From the UHGV virus genome UHGV-1522688: DNA of 49,863 nucleotides; one strand, written 5' to 3'. Source of the stretch: a virus. Shown here piece by piece: positions 1 through 49,863 of this stretch. The position numbers and the translations under genes are program-made. The stretch's first letter is position 1. The number at the start of each line of letters is the position of its first letter. The notes under the pieces were generated by a model. It was given only the letters and a program-made list of their open reading frames with translations. It had not been told where the DNA came from and did not search any database.

Positions 1-151
1 ATTTAAATAATTCACTTTAAATTCAATCATATAATCACACAAATACATCCAGAATCCAAATTAAGGGCGCATTTAGGTACACATTAACCTACGCGCCCTC
101 TCTTTTAGTTACCACCTATACTTTCAGTCTGACATATGGCTGGAGGTTTTT

Positions 152-823
152 ATGTGTGGACGTTTTTCACAGTCAATGACGCGTGAAGACTATCTAGCCC
201 TTCTCGCTGAAGAAGTCGAACGAGACATTCCATATGGCCCTGAACCGATCGGACGTTTCAACGTTGCGCCCGGAACCAAAGTTCTGCTACTGAGCGAACG
301 TGATGAGAAACTCCATCTTGATCCAGTTATCTGGGGATACGCCCCCGGGTGGTGGGATAAACCACCACTAATTAATGCACGCTCTGAAACTGCGGCCACC
401 AGCAGAATGTTTAAACCACTCTGGCAGTATGGTCGTGCAATTTGCTTTGCTGATGGATGGTATGAATGGAAAAAGGAAGGTGACAAAAAGCAGCCCTACT
501 TCATTCATCGAGCCGATGGCCAGCCGATATTCATGGCGGCGATCGGCAGAACACCATTCGAACGTGGAGATGAAGCAGAAGGATTCCTGATAGTGACGGC
601 TGCTGCAGACAAAGGGCTGGTAGATATTCACGACAGGCGGCCGCTGGTTCTGTCACCAGAAGCCGCTCGCGAATGGATGAGGCAGGACATTGGAGGGAAA
701 GAAGCTACGGTAATTGCGGCTGACGGTTCCGTGCCGGCTGATAAATTTTCATGGCATGCTGTAATGCGTGCCGTCGGGAATGTTAAGAATCAAGGACCAG
801 AGTTAATAGAAACTATGCGTTGA
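152..823 (+). CDS. yedK: SOS response-associated peptidase YedK (SRAP family, abasic-site processing)
   Basis: 223 aa starting MCGRF (Cys2 nucleophile signature of SRAP/YedK); collinear with enterobacterial YedK as recalled. Confidence 0.9.
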   Translation: MCGRFSQSMTREDYLALLAEEVERDIPYGPEPIGRFNVAPGTKVLLLSERDEKLHLDPVIWGYAPGWWDKPPLINARSETAATSRMFKPLWQYGRAICFADGWYEWKKEGDKKQPYFIHRADGQPIFMAAIGRTPFERGDEAEGFLIVTAAADKGLVDIHDRRPLVLSPEAAREWMRQDIGGKEATVIAADGSVPADKFSWHAVMRAVGNVKNQGPELIETMR

Positions 824-1053
824 CGTACGAAGCGACAGAGAAAAACATCTGCTTTGAGCGAAAAGTGGCAGTTGAAGACAATCATGAACGATCTATGACT
901 CGATATTTACTTAATTCACTGTTATTCAAAGGGTTAAGTAAAAAAATATTATCTGTCACCTCAGTGCAATGCAATCTAAGGTTTCAAAGAACCCCCCTTT
1001 GAGTACACCGTAAGTTTTAAAATGTGAGGTAAGTTGATTTTACATATTTTCTA

Positions 1054-2124
1054 ATGCATTATCATACGTCCCTTAAAATAAATCATATTACTGAGAAAAA
1101 AATGTCCAACATTAATTTATTCGATGATGTAGTGCCTTTAGAAAAACAACATCCAATATATACAATGATGAAAGAAGAACGCTACAAACCGGAGAGAGAT
1201 GTAATTAATCAATGGGCAAAAGGATTTCAAGACCGAGACAATAAATTTGCTAAAGAATTTCAAACAAGTTTTGAACCTTGCCTATGGGAATTATATCTTT
1301 TTGCCTATCTGAAAGAATTAGGCTTAAGGAGCGACTTTTCATACGACGCTCCTGACTTCGTCGTCAATGATCCAGATTTTTGCATTGAGGCAACTATTGC
1401 ACTTCCAGCACAAGGAGACCTTGGGGCGCATGGTTTCAGTAAGGAAGATATGCCGAGAGATTTTAATAAATTTAATTCTGAAGCATCTATTCGACTTAGT
1501 AATAGCTTTATATCAAAGGTTAAAAAATTAAGATCGAGATATTCTCTACTTCCTCAATGTAAAGAAAAACCTTTTGTAATCGCCATAGCTTCATTCGACA
1601 GACCTTTTGCACACTTTGCAGCAGCTAGGCCCATACTTGCAACATTATATGGCCTATACCATGATGAAGAAGCAACCATTGAATCAGGGTCAAAGAGTAT
1701 AATTTCTTATAACGTCGATGCTGCAGTAAAAAAAGAAAATGTTAATATAGACATGGGGTTATTCTGCACACCTGAATATTCGGATGTAAGTGCTGTGATT
1801 TATAGTAGTTTAGCTACTTGGGGAAAAGTAAGAGCCCTTGCGGACAACCCTTCTGCTCTAACGATTTATACATCATTTACTCCAAAGGAAAACTCATTAT
1901 TTCCTGAAGTTCATCAAGCCTTAAAAAGTGATTATGTAGAACATCTAGCGGATGGGTTATATATTTTACACAACCCATTTGCCAAGCATCCATTGCCTAA
2001 AGAGACACTAAGTCATCCAAGAATAGCGCAAGGTTATATTGAGCCAGATGGATACGTTAATTTTATAGCGCCAGATGATTTTCTTTTATTGCGTTTTTTA
2101 CAATCGTTAAATTTGAAAGAGTAG
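1054..2124 (+). CDS. hypothetical protein, A+T-rich islet gene 1 (possible PD-(D/E)xK-like nuclease core)
   Basis: 356-aa ORF (alternative start at MSNINLFDD, about 1102); helix then 'DAPDFVVNDPDFCIEATIA' resembles a restriction-endonuclease-like strand motif; no family recognised. Confidence 0.5.
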   Translation: MHYHTSLKINHITEKKMSNINLFDDVVPLEKQHPIYTMMKEERYKPERDVINQWAKGFQDRDNKFAKEFQTSFEPCLWELYLFAYLKELGLRSDFSYDAPDFVVNDPDFCIEATIALPAQGDLGAHGFSKEDMPRDFNKFNSEASIRLSNSFISKVKKLRSRYSLLPQCKEKPFVIAIASFDRPFAHFAAARPILATLYGLYHDEEATIESGSKSIISYNVDAAVKKENVNIDMGLFCTPEYSDVSAVIYSSLATWGKVRALADNPSALTIYTSFTPKENSLFPEVHQALKSDYVEHLADGLYILHNPFAKHPLPKETLSHPRIAQGYIEPDGYVNFIAPDDFLLLRFLQSLNLKE

Positions 2125-2283
2125 TAATTATGGTCACATCTAATTACTTTACATAGATACCCACTAGAAAGGGGACTTTTCTTAAAACTCAGCCGTCAAA
2201 GATTTAGAGTGGTTATCTACTGGTATGCTTCCGAATCTGCCAGTGCGGCTGAGTGGATTTCTAGTACCCTCTAGAAGATTTAG

Positions 2284-3132
2284 TTGATTAAAACAGGTCA
2301 TGTATCATCTTCAGAGTCAACATATCGCCAACTGTCTATCATTCCATTGAGGAAAAGTATGTCATCAGAAAATTTTGTCACCTTCTGGCTCGCTAGAGCC
2401 GATCTTCCATACTTTCTTGAACCTCATGAATTTTACGTTTCGGAGGCCAAGCGTAGACTTCTATCGCAGTTTGGCGATTTAGAACAAGAAGCAGAAAGGA
2501 GGGAACAACAGTATTTGGAAGCTACCTCAAAATATTTCGATCCTGATAACGATGATCCAATGGCTGCCTACGAGCAAGCCTACCACGTGGGAATTAATTA
2601 TGTATGGTCGCTTCTGGAGATGCAAAATACCGTGTTGTTGGCATTAACGGCAGGAATGTACCACCAGTTTGATAAAAAACTAAGAGAACACACCATCAAA
2701 GAACTAAGTAACTGGTGCAAAAGAGAATTAATTACTCCCATGATCTGGAATATAACTTTCCATCAGCTTATTGATTTACTCGAATGGATTGGCCTCAAAA
2801 TCAATGGAACCGGATACGGAGAGAGGATCAAAGCCTGTAACTTGGTAGTAAACGTATACAAGCATGGGGACGGGCCTGCGCATCAAACACTATCATTCAA
2901 TCATCCTGAGTACTATCAACACCCTACCGATGTTCGAGGTACGCAGAACATACATGACCATGATGATTTACATGTATCAGAAGAGCAATTTGTAGAGTTT
3001 GCTGACGCAATAACTGAATTCTGGAAAGCAGTTCCAGAGAATTGCTATTACTCAGATCTCAAAGAAGAACCCAAATGGTTGAGTAAAGTCGTAACAAAAT
3101 TCGATAAAAAACAGAAGGGAAATAGGGACTAA
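2284..3132 (+). CDS. hypothetical protein, A+T-rich islet gene 2
   Basis: 282-aa ORF (alternative start MSSENF about 2359) directly downstream of gene 1 on same strand; no recognised family. Confidence 0.5.
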   Translation: MIKTGHVSSSESTYRQLSIIPLRKSMSSENFVTFWLARADLPYFLEPHEFYVSEAKRRLLSQFGDLEQEAERREQQYLEATSKYFDPDNDDPMAAYEQAYHVGINYVWSLLEMQNTVLLALTAGMYHQFDKKLREHTIKELSNWCKRELITPMIWNITFHQLIDLLEWIGLKINGTGYGERIKACNLVVNVYKHGDGPAHQTLSFNHPEYYQHPTDVRGTQNIHDHDDLHVSEEQFVEFADAITEFWKAVPENCYYSDLKEEPKWLSKVVTKFDKKQKGNRD

Positions 3133-3240
3133 TTACCCATCTCAAAACATCAAGTTTGCAGTGCCCTGCTCCCCGTTTATTAGTATGGAAGTTAACAATG
3201 TCTGCTTCTGACACATAACAGCCCTTAAGATGGTAACTCG

Positions 3241-3290
3241 CCGTCATGGGGTGTCGGGGGTCGGAGGTTCAAATCCTCTCGTGCCGACCA
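3241..3290 (+). other. partial tRNA-Pro (3' ~50 nt incl. T-arm, acceptor 3' strand and CCA); integration-site remnant
   Basis: 'ccgtcatggggtgtcgggggtcggaggttcaaatcctctcgtgccgacca' matches the 3' half of enterobacterial tRNA-Pro(CGG) as recalled; the 5' acceptor strand 'cggcacg' and D-arm are absent upstream. Confidence 0.7.
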
Positions 3291-3303
3291 AAAATCCTCG
3301 AAG

Positions 3304-3330
3304 AACCAGCCTGTTACGGCTGGTTTTTTT
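3304..3330 (+). terminator. rho-independent terminator following tRNA remnant
   Basis: 8-bp stem aaccagcc/ggctggtt with 6-nt loop followed by TTTTT. Confidence 0.55.
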
Positions 3331-3420
3331 ATGCCTGTTTTCTGAACGGGGAAGCAACGGGGAATAATTGGGGAAAAACCCCGACACAAAACATCGACTT
3401 TACCGTAAAGTTTCAGCTAT

Positions 3421-3810
3421 TCACATCACTGGGCAGTCATCAAACTCCGCGTTCCTGGCATCATTAATGATGTACGTGATAACACCAAATATTGCGTGTG
3501 AAGAATTATAGCCATCACCGTCTTCTGGCAGCACTTCTCTTCTCCCGTTCTCCAGATTTATCAGGTGGGGCTGAGGGTGAGTTCGGTATCGCTTGATCCT
3601 GAATTCCCCATCTATCGCGCATATCAGCAGCGAGCCATCACAGGCTGAAAGCGACGCGTCCACAACAAGTAGTGCCCCCTGGATTATCCCTTCCCTGAAA
3701 TGTGAACACGATGCCCGCATGAAATAAGTCGCTGCGGGCTGGCTGATTAGCTGTTGATCGAGGGAAATCCTTGTTTCAACGTAATCACTGGCAGGTGAAG
3801 GGAAGCCCAT
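3421..3810 (-). CDS. UmuD'-like protein, encoded without the N-terminal arm (begins at the position equivalent to UmuD Gly25)
   Basis: From internal ATG with GGAGG SD: MGFPSPASDYVETRISLDQQLISQPAATYF... aligns with E. coli UmuD residues 25 onward ([29 protein letters not shown]); C-terminal 'AIDGEFRIKRY...FGVITYII' matches UmuD fold; Lys of the Ser-Lys dyad retained, GDSM motif diverged to CSHF. Confidence 0.8.
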   Translation of the reverse strand: MGFPSPASDYVETRISLDQQLISQPAATYFMRASCSHFREGIIQGALLVVDASLSACDGSLLICAIDGEFRIKRYRTHPQPHLINLENGRREVLPEDGDGYNSSHAIFGVITYIINDARNAEFDDCPVM

Positions 3811-3812
3811 GG

Positions 3813-4055
3813 CTATAGTCCTCCGTTTGGATTGAAAAGCTGAAAGGTACGGTTCTCCCCTTCCTGCGTTGATACATCGCGGAATGATGTCACATACCAC
3901 TCGATCCATTCGTTAGCCTGCTTCATCGTCCAGTTCCAGTTAACCTTGCTCAGTTCCTGGACAAACCGCTGTGTGGTGACGGTCTTCCGGCCATTAGGTT
4001 CTTGCTGTATCGAAGCATGCCAGGCCATTTCAATATCGCTGCGTCGTGGCATCAA
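3813..4055 (-). CDS. hypothetical protein, upstream partner of UmuD'-like gene
   Basis: 80-aa ORF ending 2 nt before the UmuD'-like ATG; not UmuC-like. Confidence 0.45.
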   Translation of the reverse strand: MMPRRSDIEMAWHASIQQEPNGRKTVTTQRFVQELSKVNWNWTMKQANEWIEWYVTSFRDVSTQEGENRTFQLFNPNGGL

Positions 4056-13369: not shown

Positions 13370-14983
13370 ATGAATATTGTGCATTATGCAGCCATTGGAG
13401 CTGTAGCTTTCGTAGTTGTTCTAACAATTTTGGTGATAAACATCATTAAATTAAAGTCAGCCAAGGCTGATGCAGCAGAAAAGGCGGCAAAACTTGAGCG
13501 TTACGCGTCAATCACCAATGCTGAAACAGAAGCTGAACGAATCGTGAATGCAGCTAAGCAAACCGCAGAAGAGTTAATTATTGATTCGCAGAATAACCTT
13601 GACGAGGCAAAAGCTGAAGCAGCCAACACTATTGCAGCCAGTGAAAAAGATGCAAGATCTATAACACAGCGTGCGGAGGATATTCTATCAGATGCGCGTT
13701 TAGCAGCTAAGCGAATGAACGCAGAGGCGCTGACCGCTGTAGAAACACAAAGAGTCAAGCGTGCAGAAATTGAAAAACAGATTGATGAATTGCGTAAATC
13801 CTATCGTGAGAAAAAAATCACTTACGATGAGCTGACGGAAGCCCTGTCAATTTATAAAGATGATATGGAATTTGCTGACATGGGGTTCTATGCACCACAC
13901 TTCGATTTTGATACCTCGGCTAGTTTTCAGGATGCGATCAAGGCATGTCGCGAACGGCAAAAAAATCTGCTACGTGACAAAACTGAATTTGGCGCAATAC
14001 ATTGCCCTACTGAATGGACGGTTGGCGGCTCTAAAAGTGAAGGTCGGAAAATGACCACTCGCGGCATTCAGATGACAGCACGTGCATTCAATGGTGAGTG
14101 TGATGCAGCTATTGCAAACTGCACATTTAAAAACGTTTATCAAATGGAGCAAAGAATTTATAAAGCCTTTGATGCCTTGAATAAGATGAATGAGGTTAAC
14201 CAGATTTACATCAATCGTGCTTTTTTAGATTTGAAGCTGGATGAACTTCGACTTACACATGAATATCGTTTGAAAAAACAAGAAGAACGAGAAGAACAAC
14301 GTGAAATCCGCGCTCAGATGGCTGAGGAGAAGCGAGCTCAAGCCGAAATTGATCGTGCACTTCGAGAGGCTGAAGATGAAGAACGCCGCGCCCAAAAAGC
14401 GTTGGATAAAGCCCGAAAAGAAATGGAATCGAAGCTAGCCCAAATGACAGCTGAGCAAGTTGAGAAACACCAAGCGAAGGTATCCGAATTAGAACATGCC
14501 TTAGAAGAGGCATTGTTGAAAGGCCAAAAAGCTCTTTCTATGGCTCAACAAACTAAACGCGGCCACGTGTACGTTATCTCTAATATTGGTTCGTTTGGTG
14601 ATGATGTTTTTAAAATAGGAATGACACGTCGACTTGACCCTCAAGATCGAGTGGATGAACTGGGTAGTGCATCAGTCCCATTCCTGTTCGATGTTCATGC
14701 AATGATTTTCAGTGAAGATGCACCAACAATGGAAAACATGCTCCACCAGCGTTTCAATGAGCAACGCACTAACCTAGTTAATAAGCGTAAAGAGTTTTTC
14801 AATGTAAAATTAAGCGATATCAAAGATGCTGTGTTTGAGATCGCAGGTAAAGATGTAGATTTTATCGAAACAGCAACTGCTCAGCATTATTATGAAACAA
14901 AGGCAATTCGTAAGCAGAAAGCGGATATCATTTCAGTTGTTCCTCAAGAGGAAAAACTACCTAAATTTGCGGACGCAATATAA
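13370..14983 (+). CDS. membrane-anchored coiled-coil protein with DUF4041-like region and C-terminal T5orf172/MUG113 (GIY-YIG-like) domain; candidate defence/exclusion factor
   Basis: 537 aa; N-terminal hydrophobic helix (AIGAVAFVVVLTILVINII); long Ala/Glu/Lys/Arg-rich helical stretches; C-terminal 'GHVYVISNIGSFGDDVFKIGMTRRLDPQDRVDEL...VPF...LHQRFNEQRTNLVNKRKEFF' matches T5orf172 signature as recalled; opposite strand to the tail operon; A+T-rich. Confidence 0.7.
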   Translation: MNIVHYAAIGAVAFVVVLTILVINIIKLKSAKADAAEKAAKLERYASITNAETEAERIVNAAKQTAEELIIDSQNNLDEAKAEAANTIAASEKDARSITQRAEDILSDARLAAKRMNAEALTAVETQRVKRAEIEKQIDELRKSYREKKITYDELTEALSIYKDDMEFADMGFYAPHFDFDTSASFQDAIKACRERQKNLLRDKTEFGAIHCPTEWTVGGSKSEGRKMTTRGIQMTARAFNGECDAAIANCTFKNVYQMEQRIYKAFDALNKMNEVNQIYINRAFLDLKLDELRLTHEYRLKKQEEREEQREIRAQMAEEKRAQAEIDRALREAEDEERRAQKALDKARKEMESKLAQMTAEQVEKHQAKVSELEHALEEALLKGQKALSMAQQTKRGHVYVISNIGSFGDDVFKIGMTRRLDPQDRVDELGSASVPFLFDVHAMIFSEDAPTMENMLHQRFNEQRTNLVNKRKEFFNVKLSDIKDAVFEIAGKDVDFIETATAQHYYETKAIRKQKADIISVVPQEEKLPKFADAI

Positions 14984-36409: not shown

Positions 36410-36616
36410 TCACCCCCAGACCTTTTGCCGAAAGGTTCTTGGTGTACGCGCCGGATGCTCGCATTCAGGTAATTTTGCGCTAACAGTCCAGGTGATATTG
36501 TCGCGATTCAGGCTGCGTTCTACCGTGGCGCCGCGGCGTCGGTAACAGGCAATAAGTTCGTCGGCCTGCTCGGTTGTGCATTCGTGATGGTGGAACCAGG
36601 AAAATTTCATCGCCAT
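36410..36616 (-). CDS. hypothetical small nin-region protein
   Basis: 68 aa from ATG overlapping upstream stop (TGATG coupling). Confidence 0.45.
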   Translation of the reverse strand: MAMKFSWFHHHECTTEQADELIACYRRRGATVERSLNRDNITWTVSAKLPECEHPARTPRTFRQKVWG

Positions 36617-37218
36617 CACCCCGCAAAACTCATAAGCTGCGCAGCGGCGTTTTCCGCTTCTCGCTGAGTCTTGAATGCCCGGGACAATACCCAGCGCCAC
36701 AGAACATCGAGCGCGGCTTTGTAAAGTTGCTGGAACTCGGTTTCGTCCATGTTGGCGAAAGCTATGCTGCGGGGGTGTTTACGAAGAGTTCCGTCAGGTA
36801 GTTGAATTGCGTCGTAGTGGCCGGCCTCGACAATTACCCAGGCACGGTACGCGTCAAAGGATTTACACAGGCTGATCCCATTGGTAACTCGGCGACTGGC
36901 TACCTGCTCCAGATACTGCTCGGCAGCATCCAGCAGTGCGCCTTCGTTTCCACCAAATGCCGCGAGGAATTTAGCATAACCATTTACGAGCTTACGCTCA
37001 TTGCTGGATATCGCCCCTCCAGTAGGTTCCCAGTATTCAAACCCGAGATTCAGGAGCGCAAAAAAACGGCGATGGAATGCGGGATTCCTCACCTGGCGAA
37101 ATTCGGCTACCAGCACGGCACCGAGTTTGATTTTTGATTGCAGAATATCGCTGGTCTCCGGCGTCGCGGGGATCAGGATTCCTGATGACTGCTTGATGAG
37201 TTGTAGTTCGTGCGCCAT
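36616..37218 (-). CDS. nin-region protein (DUF1367-like?)
   Basis: 200-aa ORF; family guess from memory only. Confidence 0.45.
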   Translation of the reverse strand: MAHELQLIKQSSGILIPATPETSDILQSKIKLGAVLVAEFRQVRNPAFHRRFFALLNLGFEYWEPTGGAISSNERKLVNGYAKFLAAFGGNEGALLDAAEQYLEQVASRRVTNGISLCKSFDAYRAWVIVEAGHYDAIQLPDGTLRKHPRSIAFANMDETEFQQLYKAALDVLWRWVLSRAFKTQREAENAAAQLMSFAG

Positions 37219-37300: not shown

Positions 37301-37522
37301 TCAATTTTTAGAAGTCATCTCCCTTACAACTTCCATGATGGTTTCTTTGGACCAGTACAATTCATCTCTGGATAATTTTCTGTTAGTTACAGAACCGGCC
37401 TTGGCTGAAAGGATGTAGCGTTCATCCGCTGCAAGTCCGAAAGACAAAAGCTCCCGACCTTTCCCATCGGTTATGATCACCCGTAAATTATCAGCAAGAT
37501 CTGATTGGGCTATATCTGCCAC
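37301..37522 (-). CDS. hypothetical small protein
   Basis: 73-aa ORF. Confidence 0.4.
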   Translation of the reverse strand: MADIAQSDLADNLRVIITDGKGRELLSFGLAADERYILSAKAGSVTNRKLSRDELYWSKETIMEVVREMTSKN

Positions 37523-37631: not shown

Positions 37632-37865
37632 CTAATAAAACCAGTCGTCAGCGCTTTCCCAGGTATCCTGGAGGATTGATTCAATTTTCTTTTTATCGTC
37701 CTTGTCACCGCCAAAAACACTTAACCCATCCGACCCGGCACGGCGGATTGTGAGCCTGCAATTGTCATAGTGATCATTCAGGCGCTTAAGCAATTCTTTC
37801 TCCAGTGCAGGAACCGCGCCTTTAGGAAGTTCTTTCATACGATCAATGGTTAATTCAACTTTCAT
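37632..37865 (-). CDS. DinI-family protein (second copy)
   Basis: Start at ATG with GGAGG SD: MKVELTIDR...; C-terminal 'KKKIESILQDTWESADDWFY' nearly identical to DinI 'QRISEILQETWESADDWFVSE'. Confidence 0.8.
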   Translation of the reverse strand: MKVELTIDRMKELPKGAVPALEKELLKRLNDHYDNCRLTIRRAGSDGLSVFGGDKDDKKKIESILQDTWESADDWFY

Positions 37866-37883: not shown

Positions 37884-37903
37884 TACTGTGTTTTTATACA
37901 GTA
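37884..37903. promoter_or_regulatory. LexA box upstream of second dinI-like gene
   Basis: TACTGTGTTTTTATACAGTA: perfect CTGT-N8-ACAG, 19 nt upstream of start codon. Confidence 0.65.
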
Positions 37904-38172
37904 TACCTATGAGAGGAAATGATCAACGTTTTAAGAGCACAAATTGTTAATTTCCTGTCAGGAATAAAAAAAGAAAACCCGCCGTAGCGGGTTGAATTCG
38001 TGATGGTTTATAAAGATGTAATTTCTTTCTACTGACAAATCTATGGCTACCCATTTACCCTCAAACGTGAATACAGCATACGCGCCGACATACTGATTAT
38101 CTCTTTGTGGATCGGGATATGATCAACCTTCTGCCAGAACGTAAAACTTGATGCCGCTGACAAATAAACAGC

Positions 38173-38433
38173 TCATTGTTTCTTCTCGTTCTGGGCTGCC
38201 ATATCCAGATAGCGCGGGTCGGATGCTCTCGGTAATGTCAGACTTTGCTCGCGATAGTAGCGCACACGCTCCATGAAGTATTCGCGGAGATGCTCTGGCT
38301 GATCACGGGCTTCCTGTTCAGCGATAACCGGCATGTTCAGGCGCTCTTTGTCCGCTACTCCGGATGCTGCAAAGTCAACGTTAACCTTGTCCTGCTCTTC
38401 TTTCGGCTTGGCTGCAATGTTATGGTTGGACAT
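38173..38433 (-). CDS. hypothetical small acidic protein
   Basis: 86-aa ORF. Confidence 0.4.
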   Translation of the reverse strand: MSNHNIAAKPKEEQDKVNVDFAASGVADKERLNMPVIAEQEARDQPEHLREYFMERVRYYREQSLTLPRASDPRYLDMAAQNEKKQ

Positions 38434-38523: not shown

Positions 38524-38928
38524 TTACTTTAATTTATATATTAAACAATCCACAATATCCAAACCATTAACCATACTATTTGAAAGTCGAACTTTGCTAT
38601 TTTCAATAGAGAATGCTCCTTTCATCATTTTATAAATAAAAGCAGACTCTCCTTTAGCTTCGATTGCTTCAAGTGGTATGGAATGGTATTTATTTGATCT
38701 ATTATCTCTATTGATTTGACTTATAAGGCTATAAACGAATGTAGGCCCTTTCTCCTCAAGATCACTTATTACCAAAATATATTTCCAAGAAAACATTTCC
38801 CCATAAAAAAACCACATGGCAGCGGATAAAGCTACTCCTTTCTTCTCTAACTCTTTCATTAGAAATTGGCCAGAATTTTCCATAGAGGTCGTCATTGAGT
38901 GACCTATTACCAGTGACTTCTTACCCAT
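38524..38928 (-). CDS. hypothetical protein (A+T-rich cassette, downstream gene)
   Basis: 134-aa ORF overlapping the upstream gene by 22 nt. Confidence 0.5.
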   Translation of the reverse strand: MGKKSLVIGHSMTTSMENSGQFLMKELEKKGVALSAAMWFFYGEMFSWKYILVISDLEEKGPTFVYSLISQINRDNRSNKYHSIPLEAIEAKGESAFIYKMMKGAFSIENSKVRLSNSMVNGLDIVDCLIYKLK

Positions 38929-39329
38929 TGCAAAACTCCAGATTGATTATTCTCAGCTGCTTCGATGAGCTGCTCCGCCATAGCCCGACTGATAGTAGTT
39001 TCGTAGCGGAGTTGTTCACTCCAATCCTTCATAACAGTCCAAAATATTTCAAACTGCCCATCCTGGGCAGCTAATTGTCTATGTGATAGTTGTAGGCTCG
39101 CCACCTGCATGAGCTTTGTTAGATCATGAACATGTGAGTCCATGGCTAACTTCTTGTCAGGAAATTGAAATGCCGTCACATTTTTTGCTATACATGCTTT
39201 AAGAGCGCACTCAACTGCGTATCCGCAGAGGTAGTATGCACCATGATATAATCCATTCTGTAACAGACATTTTGCTTCCGTTAACCTTATACCAGTTAAA
39301 ACTTCTAGGTCAGATTTATTCATTTGCAA
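38907..39329 (-). CDS. hypothetical protein, possibly HEPN-like helical domain (A+T-rich cassette, upstream gene)
   Basis: 140 aa; 'GAYYLCGYAVECALKACIA' resembles first helix of HEPN-type domains; canonical Rx4-6H not clearly seen. Confidence 0.45.
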   Translation of the reverse strand: MQMNKSDLEVLTGIRLTEAKCLLQNGLYHGAYYLCGYAVECALKACIAKNVTAFQFPDKKLAMDSHVHDLTKLMQVASLQLSHRQLAAQDGQFEIFWTVMKDWSEQLRYETTISRAMAEQLIEAAENNQSGVLQWVRSHW

Positions 39330-39441
39330 ATATTCTAATTTTCTTTCATAGGCACATGGTACTCATTGAGTGTAATTCTTTCCAACAAATTATCAGATAT
39401 ATACGATAAAAGGTCGCTTGATCAATTTTCGGAGCTAGGAG

Positions 39442-39894
39442 CTAAATGATGTGAAGGCGCGGCTCCCCGTTTTTCGGCTCAGGCCACTGACGCTGCTTAT
39501 TCACCGCCAACTTTTCTACCATCGCCTGGTTAATCTGCTCGTCACTGATACCGGCACGACGTTGCGCATCCCATAACAGGAATTGCATGTCAGCCCATTC
39601 GCTAAGGTCGCCTGGTTCAGCAGCAGCCTCGAGTGCTTCTTTGGAAAGGTGCTTCAGCGGACCAACTGGACCGACATCGCCGAAAGTAGCCAGTGACCAC
39701 GCTGCATGTTCACGGCGTACTTGTTCGCGGGCCATCGACTCCAGAACCCCATTAAACACCTTCACAGCATCAGCCATTGCGTAGCCGAGATTGCCGCCGT
39801 CGCTTTGTGCTGCTGCTTTGCTGAGTATTTCTCTTATCTGGTGCAGGCGATTGAGTGATACAGGACCGTTCGCCGGGTGGTTGTTAGTGGTCAT
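39442..39894 (-). CDS. MazG-like nucleotide pyrophosphohydrolase (DUF550-like)
   Basis: Start taken at MTTNNHPANG; 'EALEAAAEPGDLSEWADMQFLLWDAQRRAG' resembles MazG-type fold. Confidence 0.55.
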   Translation of the reverse strand: MTTNNHPANGPVSLNRLHQIREILSKAAAQSDGGNLGYAMADAVKVFNGVLESMAREQVRREHAAWSLATFGDVGPVGPLKHLSKEALEAAAEPGDLSEWADMQFLLWDAQRRAGISDEQINQAMVEKLAVNKQRQWPEPKNGEPRLHII

Positions 39895-40202
39895 ACTGAT
39901 GCTCTCCCGTAAAATGCCAGAACCCGCTTCATCGCCGGACTTGTACGGCATACTGAAGTAACCATGTTTTTTCTCATGTTCGATTTGATCTGCTTGATAT
40001 TCAGTTCCCCGCCTAGTTGCAGCGAATAGACCGGGTGATGTGGCTCCCCAGCGCGAATAACTACTGCCCTACGTACCAGGTGAAGCAGCAGGTTGTGTGC
40101 TTTCTTGCAGTCGCATCCCAGCAGGTTCTGAACCTGACGCGGGGTTATGGTCTGGTTAACCCGAAGGAAATCGACAATTGCCCACAGTGATTTGCTTGCC
40201 AT
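39891..40202 (-). CDS. hypothetical protein (replication-region)
   Basis: 103-aa ORF, 4-nt overlap with downstream gene. Confidence 0.45.
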   Translation of the reverse strand: MASKSLWAIVDFLRVNQTITPRQVQNLLGCDCKKAHNLLLHLVRRAVVIRAGEPHHPVYSLQLGGELNIKQIKSNMRKNMVTSVCRTSPAMKRVLAFYGRASV

Positions 40203-40220: not shown

Positions 40221-40970
40221 TTATTTAACGATCCGGAGATGGCTAACGTTCTTGCGATAGCTGCCCCAGTCAAAGTTCACCCACATCCCGCCATCCATCT
40301 GGAGGCGATCGATAACCCGCGCACCCAACGCGCCGAGAAGTTCGTCGTGGTTCAGATTCGTCAGAACGCCAACCGGGCGCATTGATGACAGCCGACGGTC
40401 AATAACCTGATTCAGAATGACTTTCTCCCCGTTGCTACCGCGCTGAATACCGACTTCATCCAGCACCAGCAGATCGACTTTGCAGAGGTCATCCAAAAGT
40501 GAAGCCTCGGATTGACCACCGTCGTAGCACTCGCGAACGCGCAGCATCAGATCAGGGATTGTCACCACCAACACAGATTGCCCACCGGACAGGAGATGAT
40601 TCCCGATTGCCGCTGCCAGATGGTTTTTCCCGGTACCAGGACCGCCACTGAATACAAAACTCGCAAAGCCGGCTCCAAAGTTCTGCGCGTAGCTCTTTGC
40701 CATGGTATAGGCCTTGCGCTGTTGCTCCCCGGACACTTCGTAGTTGGCGAACGTGCAGCTGCGGTGCAGGCTTTGAATTCCTGAGCGGCCGAAGATTTTC
40801 TCTGTGCGCGCTTTCTGATTCAGCTTGTCCAACTCTTCGCAATGTTTCAGGCCTTCTTCCCGCTGCCACGCCAGCAGCTCTGCTGCGCTGGTGAACTTCG
40901 GCTGAACGCCTGGCGGAATGAGTTTTTTCAGGCGCTCAAGAGCGCTGCCGGAATTAACAATGTTTTTCAC
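40221..40970 (-). CDS. DnaC-like helicase loader (IstB-like ATPase)
   Basis: 249 aa; Walker A 'SGGPGTGKNHLAAAIG', Walker B 'LLVLDEVG'. Confidence 0.85.
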   Translation of the reverse strand: MKNIVNSGSALERLKKLIPPGVQPKFTSAAELLAWQREEGLKHCEELDKLNQKARTEKIFGRSGIQSLHRSCTFANYEVSGEQQRKAYTMAKSYAQNFGAGFASFVFSGGPGTGKNHLAAAIGNHLLSGGQSVLVVTIPDLMLRVRECYDGGQSEASLLDDLCKVDLLVLDEVGIQRGSNGEKVILNQVIDRRLSSMRPVGVLTNLNHDELLGALGARVIDRLQMDGGMWVNFDWGSYRKNVSHLRIVK

Positions 40971-40972
40971 CG

Positions 40973-41917
40973 TTACCCCCTGAATCCGGTTGGGATGGTT
41001 TTATCTGGCTCGGAAATGCGGTTCACATCCCTCCCCGTTTTGCGGTCGTTGAGAGCGAACTTCGGTTTGAACAGTCCCTGGTATCCGTTGGCGATACTGG
41101 TGTTGATCACATCAACCGGGTCATGCCCTTCGTCCAGGCAAGCCTTGAGCAACTTGAAAGCTTTGGTGACCGTCATTTCGGTCTTGATGGCTTTGCCAGA
41201 CTGTTGGCGGTAGGCAACCCACTCATTCCAGGACACAGAATCAAGCCACTCAGGAACGGGAATCGTCAACGGGTCAAACTTACCCCTCCCCTTTGGGGGA
41301 TTAGAGGGGGTTAGATCTGTATTTATATTTGTATTTGGAAGAATGTCTTTGGTGTTCCCTGTTTTCAGGGATACCTCTCCCTGTTTTTGGGGATGGTTAT
41401 CCCCGTTTTCAGGGATGGTTGAATGGGTAAAATTGCTATCCCTGAATTCGGGGATGGTAATTACCCATGTAACAACTTCAGCAGCAGGAAACACCGCTGG
41501 ACACTTCATGCAATTTGGCTTGGTATACGCCCATTTATCCAGGCTGGTATTAATCCCTATGTATCTGGTTTGCCCAATGCGGCGCAGGATGATGATGTTC
41601 CGATAGGCAAGGCTCAACACGGCCTCAGAGACGTGCTTCACCTTCAGCGTCGTTTTATCTGCAATGAGGCTATTGGCGATGCGGTCAGAACTCTTAGACC
41701 AGCCATAGGTCAGACGAACGATAGCATTCAGCACCCGAAACTCACGCCCGGATAGTTCGACGATACACAGGGCATCCTGAATCTGGTTGGCCAGGCGCAA
41801 ATAGCCTTTCTCCAGATCAGCCATGCTGCTCTCCTGTTTCCCCTGCTGTGTGGGGAATTTGAATATTTCAGCGGTATTTGACATACTGTTCCCCGCAATC
41901 ACTTTCCGTTTTTGCAC
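40973..41917 (-). CDS. O: replication initiator O-like protein
   Basis: N-terminal region 'LRLANQIQDALCIVELSGREFRVLNAIVRLTYGWSKSSDRIANSLIADKTTLKVKHVSEA' parallels lambda O; contains iterons internally. Confidence 0.8.
   Translation of the reverse strand: MQKRKVIAGNSMSNTAEIFKFPTQQGKQESSMADLEKGYLRLANQIQDALCIVELSGREFRVLNAIVRLTYGWSKSSDRIANSLIADKTTLKVKHVSEAVLSLAYRNIIILRRIGQTRYIGINTSLDKWAYTKPNCMKCPAVFPAAEVVTWVITIPEFRDSNFTHSTIPENGDNHPQKQGEVSLKTGNTKDILPNTNINTDLTPSNPPKGRGKFDPLTIPVPEWLDSVSWNEWVAYRQQSGKAIKTEMTVTKAFKLLKACLDEGHDPVDVINTSIANGYQGLFKPKFALNDRKTGRDVNRISEPDKTIPTGFRG
41356..41454. repeat. origin iterons: four ~16-bp internally palindromic repeats (TCCCTGTTTTCAGGGA variants) next to an A/T-rich stretch, inside O gene
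   Basis: Copies at about 41356, 41378, 41400, 41439; adjacent 'atctgtatttatatttgtatttgg'. Confidence 0.7.
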
Positions 41918-41968: not shown

Positions 41969-42508
41969 TCATACAACCCCCAGCATCAACTGCACCATCT
42001 CCATCAGCGGACCGGTTAAGCCAGGGTCAACGCGGTACATCTCCACGATCCCCTCGCTCAGCTCTTTCAGCTTCTGATGACGCGGCGCATCCATTGCGAC
42101 AGCTATCTTCGCTTCGCTGGTTTCCTTCTCCATACGTGCCAGGCGAGCCATGATGTTGTCTTCTGGCAGCAGGCGGTTGCGGTATTCAATCGGCAGAACT
42201 GCGAGGATTGCGGGAGTCAGCTGGCGAACGTTCTCGCGGTACCGCTCGCTGTTGAAATGGTTATCGAGGAAGCGGAAAAGCTTCTGGCGCTTTCGGCAGA
42301 GATCATCAGGGAAAGTGATGTCGTCACCACCCTGCGCCTGGTACTCTTCGATGATCAGAGCAGTAACTACGTCCTGACCATCAGCACCAGCCCAGGAGCG
42401 AACCGCATCACGAATATCTTCGTGGCTCGGCCCCCTGCGTGCTTGAGCGCGATTTATCATTACCCCTTGAGTAATATCGCTATCATTCTGATAAGTAAGT
42501 GTCTGCAT
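41969..42508 (-). CDS. YdaT-like (DUF1019) protein in cII position
   Basis: 179 aa; 'VVTALIIEEYQAQGG...LTPAILAVLPIEYRNRL' resembles Rac YdaT as recalled. Confidence 0.55.
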   Translation of the reverse strand: MQTLTYQNDSDITQGVMINRAQARRGPSHEDIRDAVRSWAGADGQDVVTALIIEEYQAQGGDDITFPDDLCRKRQKLFRFLDNHFNSERYRENVRQLTPAILAVLPIEYRNRLLPEDNIMARLARMEKETSEAKIAVAMDAPRHQKLKELSEGIVEMYRVDPGLTGPLMEMVQLMLGVV

Positions 42509-42519
42509 GATTAAGCCTC

Positions 42520-42738
42520 CTAACGTGGCAAACCATCTGTTGGGTTTGGGTAAATATCACTACGGACCTCATGCGGAGTGATTTTCCAATCGAGTAAACG
42601 GCAAATTGGAAGCACGCGGTGCGCAGGAACCTCGTGGTTTAACCAAAGGCTGACCGCTTGAGACGTAGTGCCAAGATTTTTCGCTATTTCTGTTTGCGTC
42701 ATAACCGCACAAACACGTTGTTTAATGGAATTTGTCAT
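42520..42738 (-). CDS. Cro/YdaS-like HTH regulator
   Basis: Start taken at MTNSIKQRVCAVMTQTEIAKNLGTTSQAVSLW; HTH; divergent from repressor. Confidence 0.7.
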   Translation of the reverse strand: MTNSIKQRVCAVMTQTEIAKNLGTTSQAVSLWLNHEVPAHRVLPICRLLDWKITPHEVRSDIYPNPTDGLPR

Positions 42739-42847
42739 ATGCAACCCTCGGATATTGAAATTCAAGATTACAACATGAAAAAAATATTTTCAATCCTGAA
42801 TGAAAATAATCTTTGCAATGCGGAATGAAAGGCTACCTTGTAGAATG
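42739..42847. promoter_or_regulatory. immunity-region divergent promoter/operator with inverted repeats
   Basis: Palindrome TTGAAATTCAA (42755-42765) and TTTTCA-N8-TGAAAA (42787-42806) between cro-like and repressor genes. Confidence 0.4.
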
Positions 42848-43264
42848 GAAGACATGAAAAAAGCACCCAACGAAGCGTTTGCCTACCGACTTCAGCTCGT
42901 CAGAGATGAGTTCGGTTGGAACATGTCAGATATAGCCCGGAGAGCGATGGTTACTCCCCAGGCAGTGCAGCAATGGGCCAAAGGAGAGTCAGCTCCAAGA
43001 GGTGAGCGCTTAAAGCGTCTCGCTGCAGCTGCTGGAAAGCCCGAACATTGGTTTTTCATGCCACCAAATACCGAAGGTGAAGATGCTGGGGTGCATGAGC
43101 CACCGCGGCAACTGGATGAAAAAGAAATCGCACTGCTTACGTTGTTCAATCAAATGCCAGAAGCTGAAAAGCTACGTTTGATAGTGCATGCCAAGGCTAC
43201 CTTGAGAGAGCTTGATCTCCTCAAAGATGATGTGTCTAGCATCATTCAAAGTATTCAGAAGTAA
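42800..43264 (+). CDS. CI-like / XRE-family prophage repressor
   Basis: 154 aa (alternative start 42845); HTH 'WNMSDIARRAMVTPQAVQQWAKGESAP'; divergent from cro-like gene. Confidence 0.75.
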   Translation: MKIIFAMRNERLPCRMEDMKKAPNEAFAYRLQLVRDEFGWNMSDIARRAMVTPQAVQQWAKGESAPRGERLKRLAAAAGKPEHWFFMPPNTEGEDAGVHEPPRQLDEKEIALLTLFNQMPEAEKLRLIVHAKATLRELDLLKDDVSSIIQSIQK

Positions 43265-43281: not shown

Positions 43282-43310
43282 AATGCAATCAGTCAGTTGA
43301 TTGCATTTTC
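43282..43310 (+). terminator. hairpin with T-run after repressor gene
   Basis: perfect 10-bp inverted repeat aatgcaatca/tgattgcatt with 6-nt loop, followed by TT. Confidence 0.4.
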
Positions 43311-43457
43311 ACGCCATCAATTGAAATTATTATTTTCATTTCGCTTGCATATTGCAATTTTCATTTGTATTGTTACTGACATCGACAACAAGCGCATCGT
43401 TGTCAGGTTCAAGAAACGTTCCGCCAGCCTGGCGACAAGGGCAAAGAGGGGATTGAG

Positions 43458-48476: not shown

Positions 48477-48677
48477 ATGGATGATATTTTGCTGACGTCA
48501 GACCTGACCAGTCGATACAAAATCTCACGTAAAACCCTTTGGTCATGGCAAAGCACAGACACGATGCCGCGGGGTTTTGCGAAGCCGTTCCCCGCCCCGG
48601 ACTTCCCCGGTAACCCTAACCGCTGGAAGTCGGAGTCAGTCAAAGAGTGGGAAGGTGTGAAACAGCCAATTAACTGA
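48477..48677 (+). CDS. xis: excisionase (AlpA/Xis-family HTH)
   Basis: 66 aa; '[12 protein letters not shown]' HTH typical of AlpA-type; adjacent to integrase. Confidence 0.7.
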
Positions 48678-49863
48678 ACGGCTCACCGATGATGTTTTCA
48701 AGATGGCTCTGCCAAACGTGGAGCCAGTGTTTTTGATCATCGATGTAGTCATGCAGGTTATAGTGCGCCATCACGCCAACCATTTGGTGACCAAGTAACT
48801 TTTCAATCACATGCGGCGGACAGCCAAGTTCTGAAAGATTTGTTGCGATTGTTCTTCTCATATCATGGAGAGACCAGGGCTCCATGCCGGATTCTGACCA
48901 AATATACCTGGCGTAGTTCGAAGCAACTGGCGGATGAACCGGGACGTCTTTAATTTCCCCATCCAATAAGCGCTGTGAAGTGACTAAATGCTTTGTGTTG
49001 ATCTTCTCAAGATGATTTTTTACCAGTCCCACCGCAGCATCAGAAAGAGCCCTTCTCATGTGCACTCGCGTTTTGTAACTTCCAGCAGGAACTATCCATT
49101 CATTTTCATCCAGCTTGAACCATGACCTTTCGCTTAACCGAATCTCTGCCGTCCTACAGCCGGTCAACATAATAAATTTCACAAGAAACACGGACTCTAT
49201 GGACATGCGGTTTTGCAGCCACCGATAAATAGCCACCAGCTCACGATCATCCAAGCGCCGCGTTCTCTTTTTCGGTTTTTGGCCAACGTCAGTGGGTAGC
49301 AATCCCTCGAGCGGATTGGTCGATATTACGCCTCGGTTAATACAGAACCTGAATGAGCGTTTGCACAGCGAAAGCATATAATGAGCCATCACCCTGCTTT
49401 CAATCTGATCAAAAACATCTATCCAGTGCCTTTTTGTCGAATTGTCGACTTTGACGTTTCGCATCGGTTCGGCGATATGCTTGGCAAATACCAACTGATA
49501 ATAACCTGTCTTTGTCAGTTGATTAGCGATGCAGTGTTTCTCGATCCAATAATTGAATGCTTCCGATACGGCCATGGAACCTTCGCGGGTCAATTTCTCC
49601 AGCTTTACTTGCTCTCGGGGATCGAGTCCTTCAGTAAGCCAGATTCTGAATTGCTGACGCCTTTCCCTTGCCTGAGCAATACTCATTGCTGGATAATCGC
49701 CGACATTGAGTTTTACAGCTTTGCCTGCCCATCTGTACCGGTAGAAGAAAGAGACCTTTCCGGCCAGACTGATTCTTGCGTTGAGTCCGTGAGAATCTGA
49801 AATAATTTCGATATCATCGCGTTTCTTGCCAAGGGCCTTCCTGAGCTTTGTGTCAGTGATCAT
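48670..49863 (-). CDS. int: tyrosine integrase (start at or beyond window edge)
   Basis: 397 aa; catalytic-domain motifs '[11 protein letters not shown]', 'LHDMRRT', 'MAHYNLH'; N-terminus 'TDTKLRKA' typical of P4-like integrases. Confidence 0.9.

Follow-up and report, generated by a model that had tools for sequence, protein, structure and literature searches.

A YdaT-family protein as the probable counterpart of CII in the immunity region of a Gifsy-like lambdoid prophage

The viral genome UHGV-1522688 (49,863 nucleotides (nt), analysed at full length and called the window here) carries at 41969-43264 an immunity region in which a prophage repressor gene diverges from a YdaS/Cro-family gene and, downstream of the latter, a gene for a 179-residue YdaT-like protein. 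We consider it fairly probable that a lambdoid prophage of the Gifsy/mEp237 kind uses this region as its lysis/lysogeny switch, which consists of three modules that can be exchanged and that serve immunity, establishment of lysogeny and induction. To judge from profile matches, a structural model and characterised homologues, the 179-residue protein is a member of the YdaT family and the functional analogue of lambda CII. Its kind of immunity region is well described, its immunity specificity new. The gene order that an earlier note had read from the sequence is correct according to open reading frames (ORFs) and profile searches, and six metagenome contigs carry the locus unchanged, with gene calls made independently on them that give products of 139, 72 and 179 residues.

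The ydaT-family gene (41969..42508, minus strand) is followed by O-like and DnaC-like replication genes (40221..41917, minus strand), which define the position as the 'cII slot'. That this slot holds a YdaT-like protein, as the earlier note had proposed, is upheld by profile searches: the protein matches Pfam YdaT_toxin, PF06254 (which we take to be the family formerly called DUF1019), with a score of 91 bits where the cut-off is 21. Its match to phrog_163, annotated 'CII-like transcriptional activator', scores 191.6 bits, and it is 33% identical to Rac YdaT over 115 residues. NCBIfam returned no model for either the YdaT-like or the Cro-like protein. At the sequence level the protein also matches the Protein Data Bank (PDB) entries 8bt1 and 3c4r, and these were the only PDB matches that Foldseek gave at probability 1.00 (template modelling score to target 0.60-0.68) for an AlphaFold2 (AF2) model. 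In the model, residues 29-110 have predicted local distance difference test scores of 80-88 and the C-terminal half is less confident; it contains a POU-like helix-turn-helix (HTH) domain and then a long helix, as in 8BT1 and 3C4R. The one recognition-helix residue that the whole family keeps, an arginine that contacts DNA (Arg60 in CP-933P YdaT, R57 in Rac YdaT), aligns with R79, which forms one of eight columns invariant across YdaT subfamilies and is also invariant in 32 homologues.

The characterised members of the family are transcriptional regulators. Prolic-Kalinsek et al. (PMC9986795) solved the YdaT structure 8BT1, a DNA-binding POU/HTH tetramer, and footprinted the repeat TTGATT-N6-AATCAA; CP-933P YdaT binds this repeat and activates PRE933P (PMC9986795, PMC8630535). 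For the Rac prophage, Wons et al. (PMC11879457) describe a footprint on ATGATTCATGAAAATCAA over the ydaT start codon, a requirement for this YdaT box in a 29-fold activation of reverse transcription toward racR, and a further footprint in the racR-ydaS intergenic region. The earlier note had treated YdaT-like and CII-like as opposed possibilities, an opposition that does not survive these reports (PMC8630535, PMC9986795, PMC11879457), in which CP-933P and Rac YdaT bind an inverted repeat where ydaS and ydaT meet and switch on a pRE-like reverse promoter for the repressor. Since YdaT is the functional equivalent of CII, CII-like activity would confirm the known function of the family rather than refute the assignment to it.

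The Pfam families are nevertheless named 'Bacterial toxin YdaT/YdaS', and YdaS and YdaT could in theory form a toxin-antitoxin or toxin-like module under the control of the repressor, with the 179-residue protein serving killing or growth arrest and not lysogeny. Depletion of RacR is lethal in E. coli K-12 through expression of ydaS/ydaT (PMC5700377, PMC5700373), and expression of Rac YdaT leads to filamentation and death (PMC11879457). However, the same report traces the toxicity of Rac YdaT to off-target activation of the host gene rcsA, which accounts for it, and Jurenas et al. (PMC8630535) found CP-933P YdaT to be non-toxic and to activate PRE, which lies between ydaS and ydaT. In the window the gene occupies precisely the cII position, with cro on one side and the replication genes on the other; a true Phage_CII gene replaces YdaT in relatives with the same immunity; and the fold, from AF2 and Foldseek as well as PMC9986795, is that of a DNA-binding POU/HTH tetramer. 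The argument from genetic context, that ydaS and ydaT are the equivalents of cro and cII, had already been made by Jobling (PMC5917428). A toxin module thus has only a slim chance of being the right description. The PGAP label 'toxin YdaT domain-containing protein' is given to hundreds of Citrobacter, Escherichia, Salmonella, Klebsiella and Enterobacter clusters, whilst phage annotators already name this type of protein CII, for example in mEp237.

Replacement of one activator by the other can be followed in five genomes that carry relatives of the repressor/cro pair. The slot holds the same YdaT type in one of them, a distant YdaT-like protein in two and a genuine Phage_CII in one (locus L003), and is empty in one. 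PF05269 (Phage_CII) is found in the slot of L003 and in that of Gifsy-2; the activator of the window has no PF05269 match. The same YdaT subfamily sits behind many unrelated Cro/repressor pairs. That immunity relatives swap one for the other shows that YdaT and Phage_CII can replace each other in the slot, and it lends direct support to their functional equivalence. The closest phage homologue of the protein, the 'CII protein' of mEp237 (90% nucleotide and 82% amino-acid identity; annotated CII or CII-like activator), is accompanied by a different Cro and repressor, which makes mEp237 heteroimmune, and by O/P replication genes where the window has O/DnaC.

Within the family, the window protein can be compared with that of CP-933P (E. 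coli O157:H7, paaR2-ydaS-ydaT; 8BT1). The two share the fold and the DNA-contacting arginine, with the recognition-helix segment QKLFRFLD in the window against QKIFRWLD in CP-933P YdaT, and are about 29-30% identical over the aligned part; CP-933P YdaT lacks the N-terminal extension, and PaaR2 is co-transcribed with a parE-type toxin-antitoxin pair that has no counterpart in the window. Rac YdaT (140 residues) lacks both the 27-residue N-terminal and the approximately 40-residue C-terminal extension of the window protein. The long-form YdaT proteins, including the distant type of loci L002 and L005, have about 40 extra C-terminal residues (41969-42090 of the window, minus strand) and end in a conserved non-polar tail, M-L-G-(V/A)-(V/A/M/I), that is absent from Rac and CP-933P YdaT. 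It is pure speculation that this tail might be a protease degron, analogous to the control of lambda CII by FtsH.

The gene for the activator may also carry the site at which its product acts. A YdaT-box-like inverted repeat, TTGAGCGCGATTTATCAT, with TGA-N10-TCA geometry, lies at 42443..42460 (plus strand) in ydaT codons 17-22, and 20 nt after it is a candidate pRE -10 hexamer, TATCAT (42481..42486, plus strand), from which a start near 42493 is predicted. The centre of the box is at -41.5 relative to this start, where activators that overlap a poor -35 classically bind, as lambda CII does at pRE. The predicted transcript would cross the ydaT start and the whole of cro in antisense before it entered the repressor gene. 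The layout resembles that of lambda, where the activator site and pRE likewise lie at the 5' end of the activator gene and are read antisense through cro, although the window activator belongs to an unrelated family and would use an inverted repeat instead of the CII direct repeat TTGC-N6-TTGC. In the Rac prophage, too, there is a TGA-N10-TCA box at the ydaT 5' end with a -10-like hexamer 20 nt on, on the antisense strand.

Searched for with up to two mismatches, the canonical box TTGATT-N6-AATCAA gave four matches in the window, none in the immunity region and not above chance. A degenerate version that keeps the TGA-N10-TCA geometry, TTGAGC-N6-TATCAT, lies 48 nt into ydaT, and the subfamily as a whole has kept it. 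Relaxed forms of the motif are likewise not significant within the single window; it is the comparison between loci that makes the case for the box. The 5' ends of 85 loci with window-type YdaT, representing 15 lineages less than 85% identical, were aligned, and loci of four YdaT subfamilies were drawn from four single-protein scans, 275 loci being examined in all. Across the 85 loci the otherwise hypervariable N-terminal coding region contains two invariant islands on the antisense strand. The first, TTGA..CG.TTTATCA, is invariant across the 15 lineages whilst its flanks are hypervariable; the second, exactly 20 nt on, is TAnnnT, which is TATCAT in the window and elsewhere TATTTT, TATCCT, TATTGT or TACTCT. 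A T at a third codon position within the islands never varies. In mEp237 the box is TTGATTGCGATTTATCAT, followed after 20 nt by TATTTT; it differs by one half-site base from the footprinted Rac box, TTGATTTTCATGAATCAT on the same strand (PMC11879457).

The same layout, a box followed after 20-21 nt by TAnnnT, is present in 85/85 window-type, 80/80 Rac-type, 80/80 CP-933P/Tritos-type and 30/30 L002-type loci, and also in two Klebsiella phages. The 80 Rac-type loci contain seven different combinations of box and hexamer, the CP-933P/Tritos-type loci several hexamers with an extended TGn, and the distant L002/L005-type loci the box TTGATATTTCGATATCAC. The intervening sequences are not alignable between subfamilies, yet the 20-21 nt spacing is kept. 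TAnnnT has a background frequency of 0.0097 per position; at this rate of about 1%, chance is very unlikely to explain why every lineage has it at one of two fixed offsets. In Rac itself (locus L090, E. coli K-12; 3152-3195, minus strand) the YdaT box is followed, exactly 20 nt on along the racR-directed strand, by TATGAT, which matches the -10 consensus at 5/6 positions. Where the slot holds a lambda-type CII, the corresponding place has the other kind of site: the control locus L003 has TTGCGTGCAATTGC (TTGC-N6-TTGC) at the cII 5' end on the antisense strand, and the Gifsy-2 cII 5' end has TTTCGTGCAATTGC, one mismatch from TTGC-N6-TTGC. Each kind of activator thus seems to bring along a site and a promoter of its own. 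The only other place in the window where TGA-N10-TCA is followed by TAnnnT (at 21 nt), ATGAGAGGAAATGATCAA ... TAATTT at 37909-37926 (plus strand), is next to a LexA box and points away from dinI, antisense to the upstream genes; with about 0.7 sites of this sort expected at random, it was taken as noise.

Several observations weigh against this reading of the box and hexamer. The relaxed motif is not statistically remarkable within a single window, and the half-site TTGAGC is two positions off the characterised TTGATT. The box coincides with a conserved I-N-R-x-Q in the protein, and constraint on the amino-acid sequence could account for some of the conservation of the box; many other ydaT codons are equally invariant at synonymous sites in what is a closely related sample. 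For this last reason a gene-wide analysis of synonymous sites was not used as proof, the sample being too closely related to separate constraint on DNA from constraint on protein. For Rac, Wons et al. assign the activation to PracR4, a distant promoter about 190 bp from the box and not a box-adjacent one, and the available part of their report does not mention the adjacent TATGAT (PMC11879457).

The box and TAnnnT might then reflect only coding constraint on the YdaT N-terminus, with the real promoter elsewhere (within cro, like PracR4) or with YdaT acting mainly at OR. The overlap with I-N-R-x-Q, the widespread synonymous invariance, and the PracR4 assignment and racR-ydaS intergenic footprint in Rac speak for such a reading. 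It accords less well with the other subfamilies: in Rac- and CP-933P-type loci the box covers the start codon of ydaT, with the hexamer outside and upstream of the ORF, and in L002-type loci box and hexamer lie within a different N-terminal sequence with the spacing still at 20-21 nt. Within the window subfamily the three bases that define TAnnnT are constant, although residues 8-10, encoded there, vary (N/Q, D/N/S, S/T/N), and the N-terminal 26 residues, which overlap the candidate promoter, are predicted by the AF2 model to be disordered. The Rac reporter, as described in the available text, held both the box-adjacent region and PracR4 and so cannot separate the two models. Coding constraint on its own is, in our estimate, rather unlikely. 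That YdaT activators in general are of the class-II type, with pRE abutting the box, the box centred at about -41.5/-42.5 and the -10 lying 20-21 nt after it, we rate at about an even chance.

The first gene of the rightward operon is a 72-residue Cro analogue of the YdaS family (42520..42738, minus strand), divergent from the repressor gene; the same gene was called on the identical contigs. The ORF at 42520-42765 (minus strand) matches YdaS_toxin, PF15943, at 41.6 bits (cut-off 30), in agreement with the YdaS/Cro-like HTH gene named earlier, and P22_Cro only weakly. Its likely start is the ATG at 42738, which is preceded by a GAGGG Shine-Dalgarno sequence. The protein is 50% identical to Gifsy-2 Cro as against 31% to Rac YdaS.

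The repressor (139 residues; 42845..43264, plus strand) belongs to the family of Gifsy-2 GtgR, to which it is 53% identical over 137 of its 139 residues, its full length. HTH_3 is the sole Pfam domain of the ORF (42800-43264, plus strand), which has no S24 peptidase domain; a match to the DicA family of NCBIfam was discarded at 46 bits, far under the cut-off of 101. The start at 42845 was set by gene calls and by alignment to GtgR. The frame has four in-frame ATGs, at 42800, 42818, 42845 and 42854, and 42801-42852 is identical in the two closest relatives, L001 and L002. In Gifsy-3 an N-terminally extended form of the repressor GfhR, GfhR*, is made from an upstream promoter on induction (PMC3121763), and by analogy an extended form could be made here too.

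The short palindromes that the earlier note had seen between cro and the repressor gene are real and specific. With no more than one mismatch, the 17-bp sequence TGAAAA-N5-TTTTCA occurs three times in the 49.8-kb window, only at OR and OL. Candidate OR-a, TGAAAAAAATATTTTCA (42776..42792), has perfect arms and is the sole match without a mismatch; candidate OR-b, TGAAAATAATCTTTGCA (42801..42817), has one mismatch and forms a 25-nt tandem unit with OR-a. Candidate OL-a, TGAAATTATTATTTTCA (43322..43338), lies 58 nt past the repressor stop codon and is conserved in both closest relatives, with a weaker second OL unit 25 bp on, at about 43347-43363. The cro-repressor intergenic and OL regions are near-invariant in these relatives. 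A candidate pR for cro-ydaT-O-dnaC (42766..42794, minus strand; -35 TTGAAA at 42794..42789, 17-nt spacer, -10 TAATCT at 42771..42766) can be read directly from the sequence and is conserved in the same relatives; OR-a overlaps its -35 and spacer. OR-b directly precedes the weak -35 that belongs to a candidate pRM (42818..42846, plus strand; -10 TAGAAT at 42841-42846), which was found in a relaxed promoter scan. Its start is predicted at about 42853-42854, on the ATG at 42854, and a leaderless repressor mRNA from pRM is possible by analogy with the cI and paaR2 mRNAs, which are leaderless (PMC8630535). The relaxed scan also gave a candidate pL ahead of recE/recT (43345..43373, plus strand; -35 TTGCAT, 17-nt spacer, -10 TATTGT). 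A default promoter and terminator scan gave nothing useful in OR or inside cro and ydaT. All these promoter and operator assignments we infer from sequence. Eighteen nt after the repressor stop codon, a terminator-like hairpin, AATGCAATCA-N6-TGATTGCATT followed by TTTT (43282..43307, plus strand; z = -3.5), shows compensatory and G-U changes in its stem in the two relatives.

The earlier note had called the whole region Rac-like. The description holds for two of the three genes, the YdaS-family Cro and the YdaT-family activator, which stand in the same arrangement as in racR-ydaS-ydaT, and fails for the repressor, and with it for the region as a type. A strict Rac-type immunity, with a RacR-family repressor that acts as in Rac and without an antirepressor, would be supported by the divergent arrangement and by the first description of the YdaS and YdaT families in Rac. 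RacR, however, is not a close homologue of the window repressor: the two match at 30% over 44 residues of the HTH only (pairwise E = 3e-4), against 53% over the full length for GtgR, and homology to RacR does not extend beyond this domain. The replication genes are O/DnaC as in Gifsy-2, and not YdaU/YdaV as in Rac, a defective prophage. The window also contains a complete cassette of LexA box, dinI and gftA-like gene, and a strict Rac type seems to us very improbable.

This cassette lies about 5 kb downstream of the immunity region and comprises the LexA box, dinI, a 73-residue ORF and a NinB-like gene. The LexA box, TACTGTGTTTTTATACAGTA (TACTGT-N8-ACAGTA; 37884..37903), is near-consensus and lies 19 nt upstream from the start codon belonging to the dinI homologue (37632..37865, minus strand; phrog_189 at 95 bits), the first gene of the cassette. 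Next is a putative antirepressor of 73 residues with a GTG start (37301..37522, minus strand), a homologue of Gifsy-2 GftA: it is 75% identical over 73 residues to STM1020.1n, the small ORF after dinI at the mapped gftA position, which is also GTG-started. The last gene is NinB-like (36616..37218, minus strand; phrog_319), is collinear with Gifsy-2 STM1020 and stands where the Gifsy prophages have their 'irsA homologue'. A hairpin that resembles a Rho-independent terminator, AACCCGC-TAC-GGCGGGTT with a T-run (37966..37995, minus strand), can be read from the sequence upstream of the LexA box.

According to Lemire et al. (PMC3121763), induction does not cleave the Gifsy repressors; antirepressors under LexA control inactivate them instead. 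GftA, the antirepressor that releases GtgR from its operator DNA, is the product of the small ORF that starts with GUG and lies between dinI and the irsA homologue; the gftA operon is LexA-controlled, the Gifsy prophages have their LexA box in the corresponding position, and a terminator precedes it in all of them. A repressor without a cleavage domain, taken together with the LexA-dinI-gftA-like cassette, indicates that SOS induction of the window prophage probably also proceeds by a LexA-controlled antirepressor and not by self-cleavage of the repressor. The note's suggestion that the region may behave differently from the lambda circuit is probably right, but at another point than the one it named: the difference would lie in a repressor without an autocleavage domain and a LexA-controlled antirepressor cassette 5 kb away. 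It is most likely Gifsy-type induction, and not the ydaT gene, that sets the region apart from lambda.

Comparison with known systems places the region with the Gifsy prophages. The nearest is the immunity and induction system of Gifsy-2 and LT2 Gifsy-1, with the repressor GtgR, analogues of Cro and CII, and a dinI-gftA-irsA operon under LexA control (Lemire et al. 2011, PMC3121763). Gifsy-2 has a similarly short repressor without a cleavage domain and is collinear with the window through repressor, cro, cII slot, O and dnaC, then some small genes, LexA box, dinI, 73-residue ORF and ninB-like gene. The only swap is in the slot, where a 106-residue Phage_CII (P22 C1-like) stands in place of the 179-residue YdaT; the operator sequences, and hence the immunity specificity, presumably differ. 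The window has a short GtgR/GfoR-like repressor without S24 and a cassette of LexA box, dinI, ORF and irsA-position gene behind an upstream terminator, as a Gifsy-type region should. With lambda it shares the divergent repressor and cro, the OR and OL, and the activator gene after cro. It has neither the S24 autocleavage domain of lambda-type CI, induction being presumably by the antirepressor, nor the PF05269 domain of lambda-type CII.

The family memberships, gene order, motifs and motif conservation observed here suggest the following scheme. In the immunity module, the GtgR-family repressor would bind the operators, two candidates for which lie at OR and a further one or two at OL, and shut off pR (cro-ydaT-O-dnaC) and pL (recE/recT). 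In the establishment module, the YdaT-family protein would be made from pR after infection, bind 42443-42460 in its own 5' coding region and activate pRE from about -41.5; pRE, with its -10 TATCAT, would transcribe the plus strand past the ydaT start, through cro and on into the repressor gene; such activation is the job of lambda CII. The activation of a reverse promoter is taken here from the literature on YdaT homologues. In the induction module, DNA damage would remove LexA from 37884-37903 and allow expression of the dinI-antirepressor-ninB operon, and the 73-residue GftA-like protein would bind the repressor and take it off the DNA, as expected from the inactivation of GtgR by GftA. The exact promoters, the assignment of operators and the activities of these proteins in this element we infer. 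Some findings fit the scheme poorly. The default scan did not pick up the candidate pR or pRM, both of which match only weakly; neither candidate repressor start has a good Shine-Dalgarno sequence for the long pRE transcript; and the GftA-like protein may target a different repressor, since pairings of Gifsy antirepressors and repressors are idiosyncratic (PMC3121763).

The rest of the window is laid out as a lambdoid prophage, with the late/tail, replication and right-hand early genes all on the minus strand and the recE/recT operon on the plus strand. The O-like (40973-41917, minus strand) and DnaC-like (40221-40970, minus strand) genes matched PF04492, TIGR01610, NF009043 and phrog_50, as an O/DnaC-like pair. 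At megablast level the exact cro/repressor pair was not found in the phage or E. coli genome collections; its nearest nucleotide match is in Klebsiella phage ST16-OXA48phi5.1, at 65% identity. An Rfam search of the window gave no matches. The integrase gene at the right end (48670-49863, minus strand) is convergent with the recE/recT operon, and the window stops exactly at its start codon, so any pI-type YdaT-dependent promoter would lie outside it.

The stretch from the replication genes to the SOS cassette contains three accessory genes (38524-39951, minus strand). One encodes a dATP/dGTP pyrophosphohydrolase-like protein (39442-39951, minus strand), another has a weak HEPN-domain match (38907-39329, minus strand) and overlaps a gene for a 134-residue protein of unknown function (38524-38928, minus strand); the latter two may be a toxin-antitoxin or defence pair. 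A homologue of the theta subunit of DNA polymerase III (HolE-like, phrog_1105; 38173-38433, minus strand) is just upstream of the terminator and LexA box. Within the tail-gene block, a 537-residue gene with DUF4041 and T5orf172/MUG113 domains (13370-14983, plus strand) has the opposite orientation and a G+C content around it of 0.44-0.49 against approximately 0.55; it looks like a moron, possibly related to defence. The left end (1-3909) is low in G+C (0.41-0.44) and contains a SRAP/YedK-like gene (152-823), ORFs without a Pfam match (1054-2124 and 2284-3132) and a gene for a 162-residue S24 peptidase (3421-3909, minus strand). These left-end genes may be cargo or flanking host DNA.

The general picture of lambdoid regulation is unchanged by these findings. 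The annotation 'toxin YdaT' is misleading here, where the context is that of a lysogeny-establishment activator in an apparently complete lambdoid prophage. Induction of this prophage is predicted to run through a LexA-controlled antirepressor, a mode that in Gifsy phages permits co-resident prophages to cross-talk. The family-wide layout of box, 20-21 nt and -10 is the only element that goes beyond the cited YdaT literature, as far as its available text extends, and it is a prediction and not a result. A class-II layout would differ from the 'activation from a distance' (about 190 bp) proposed for Rac (PMC11879457). If it is correct, the activator gene, its binding site and pRE would form one self-contained cassette and, in the long-form subfamilies including that of the window, the promoter would form part of the coding sequence for an N-terminal extension that is disordered and hypervariable. 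A YdaT cassette of this sort could be swapped with a lambda-type cII-pRE cassette behind any cro/repressor pair. The conserved layout of box, 20-21 nt and -10 gives a precise and cheap handle on activation by YdaT proteins, including the published Rac model.

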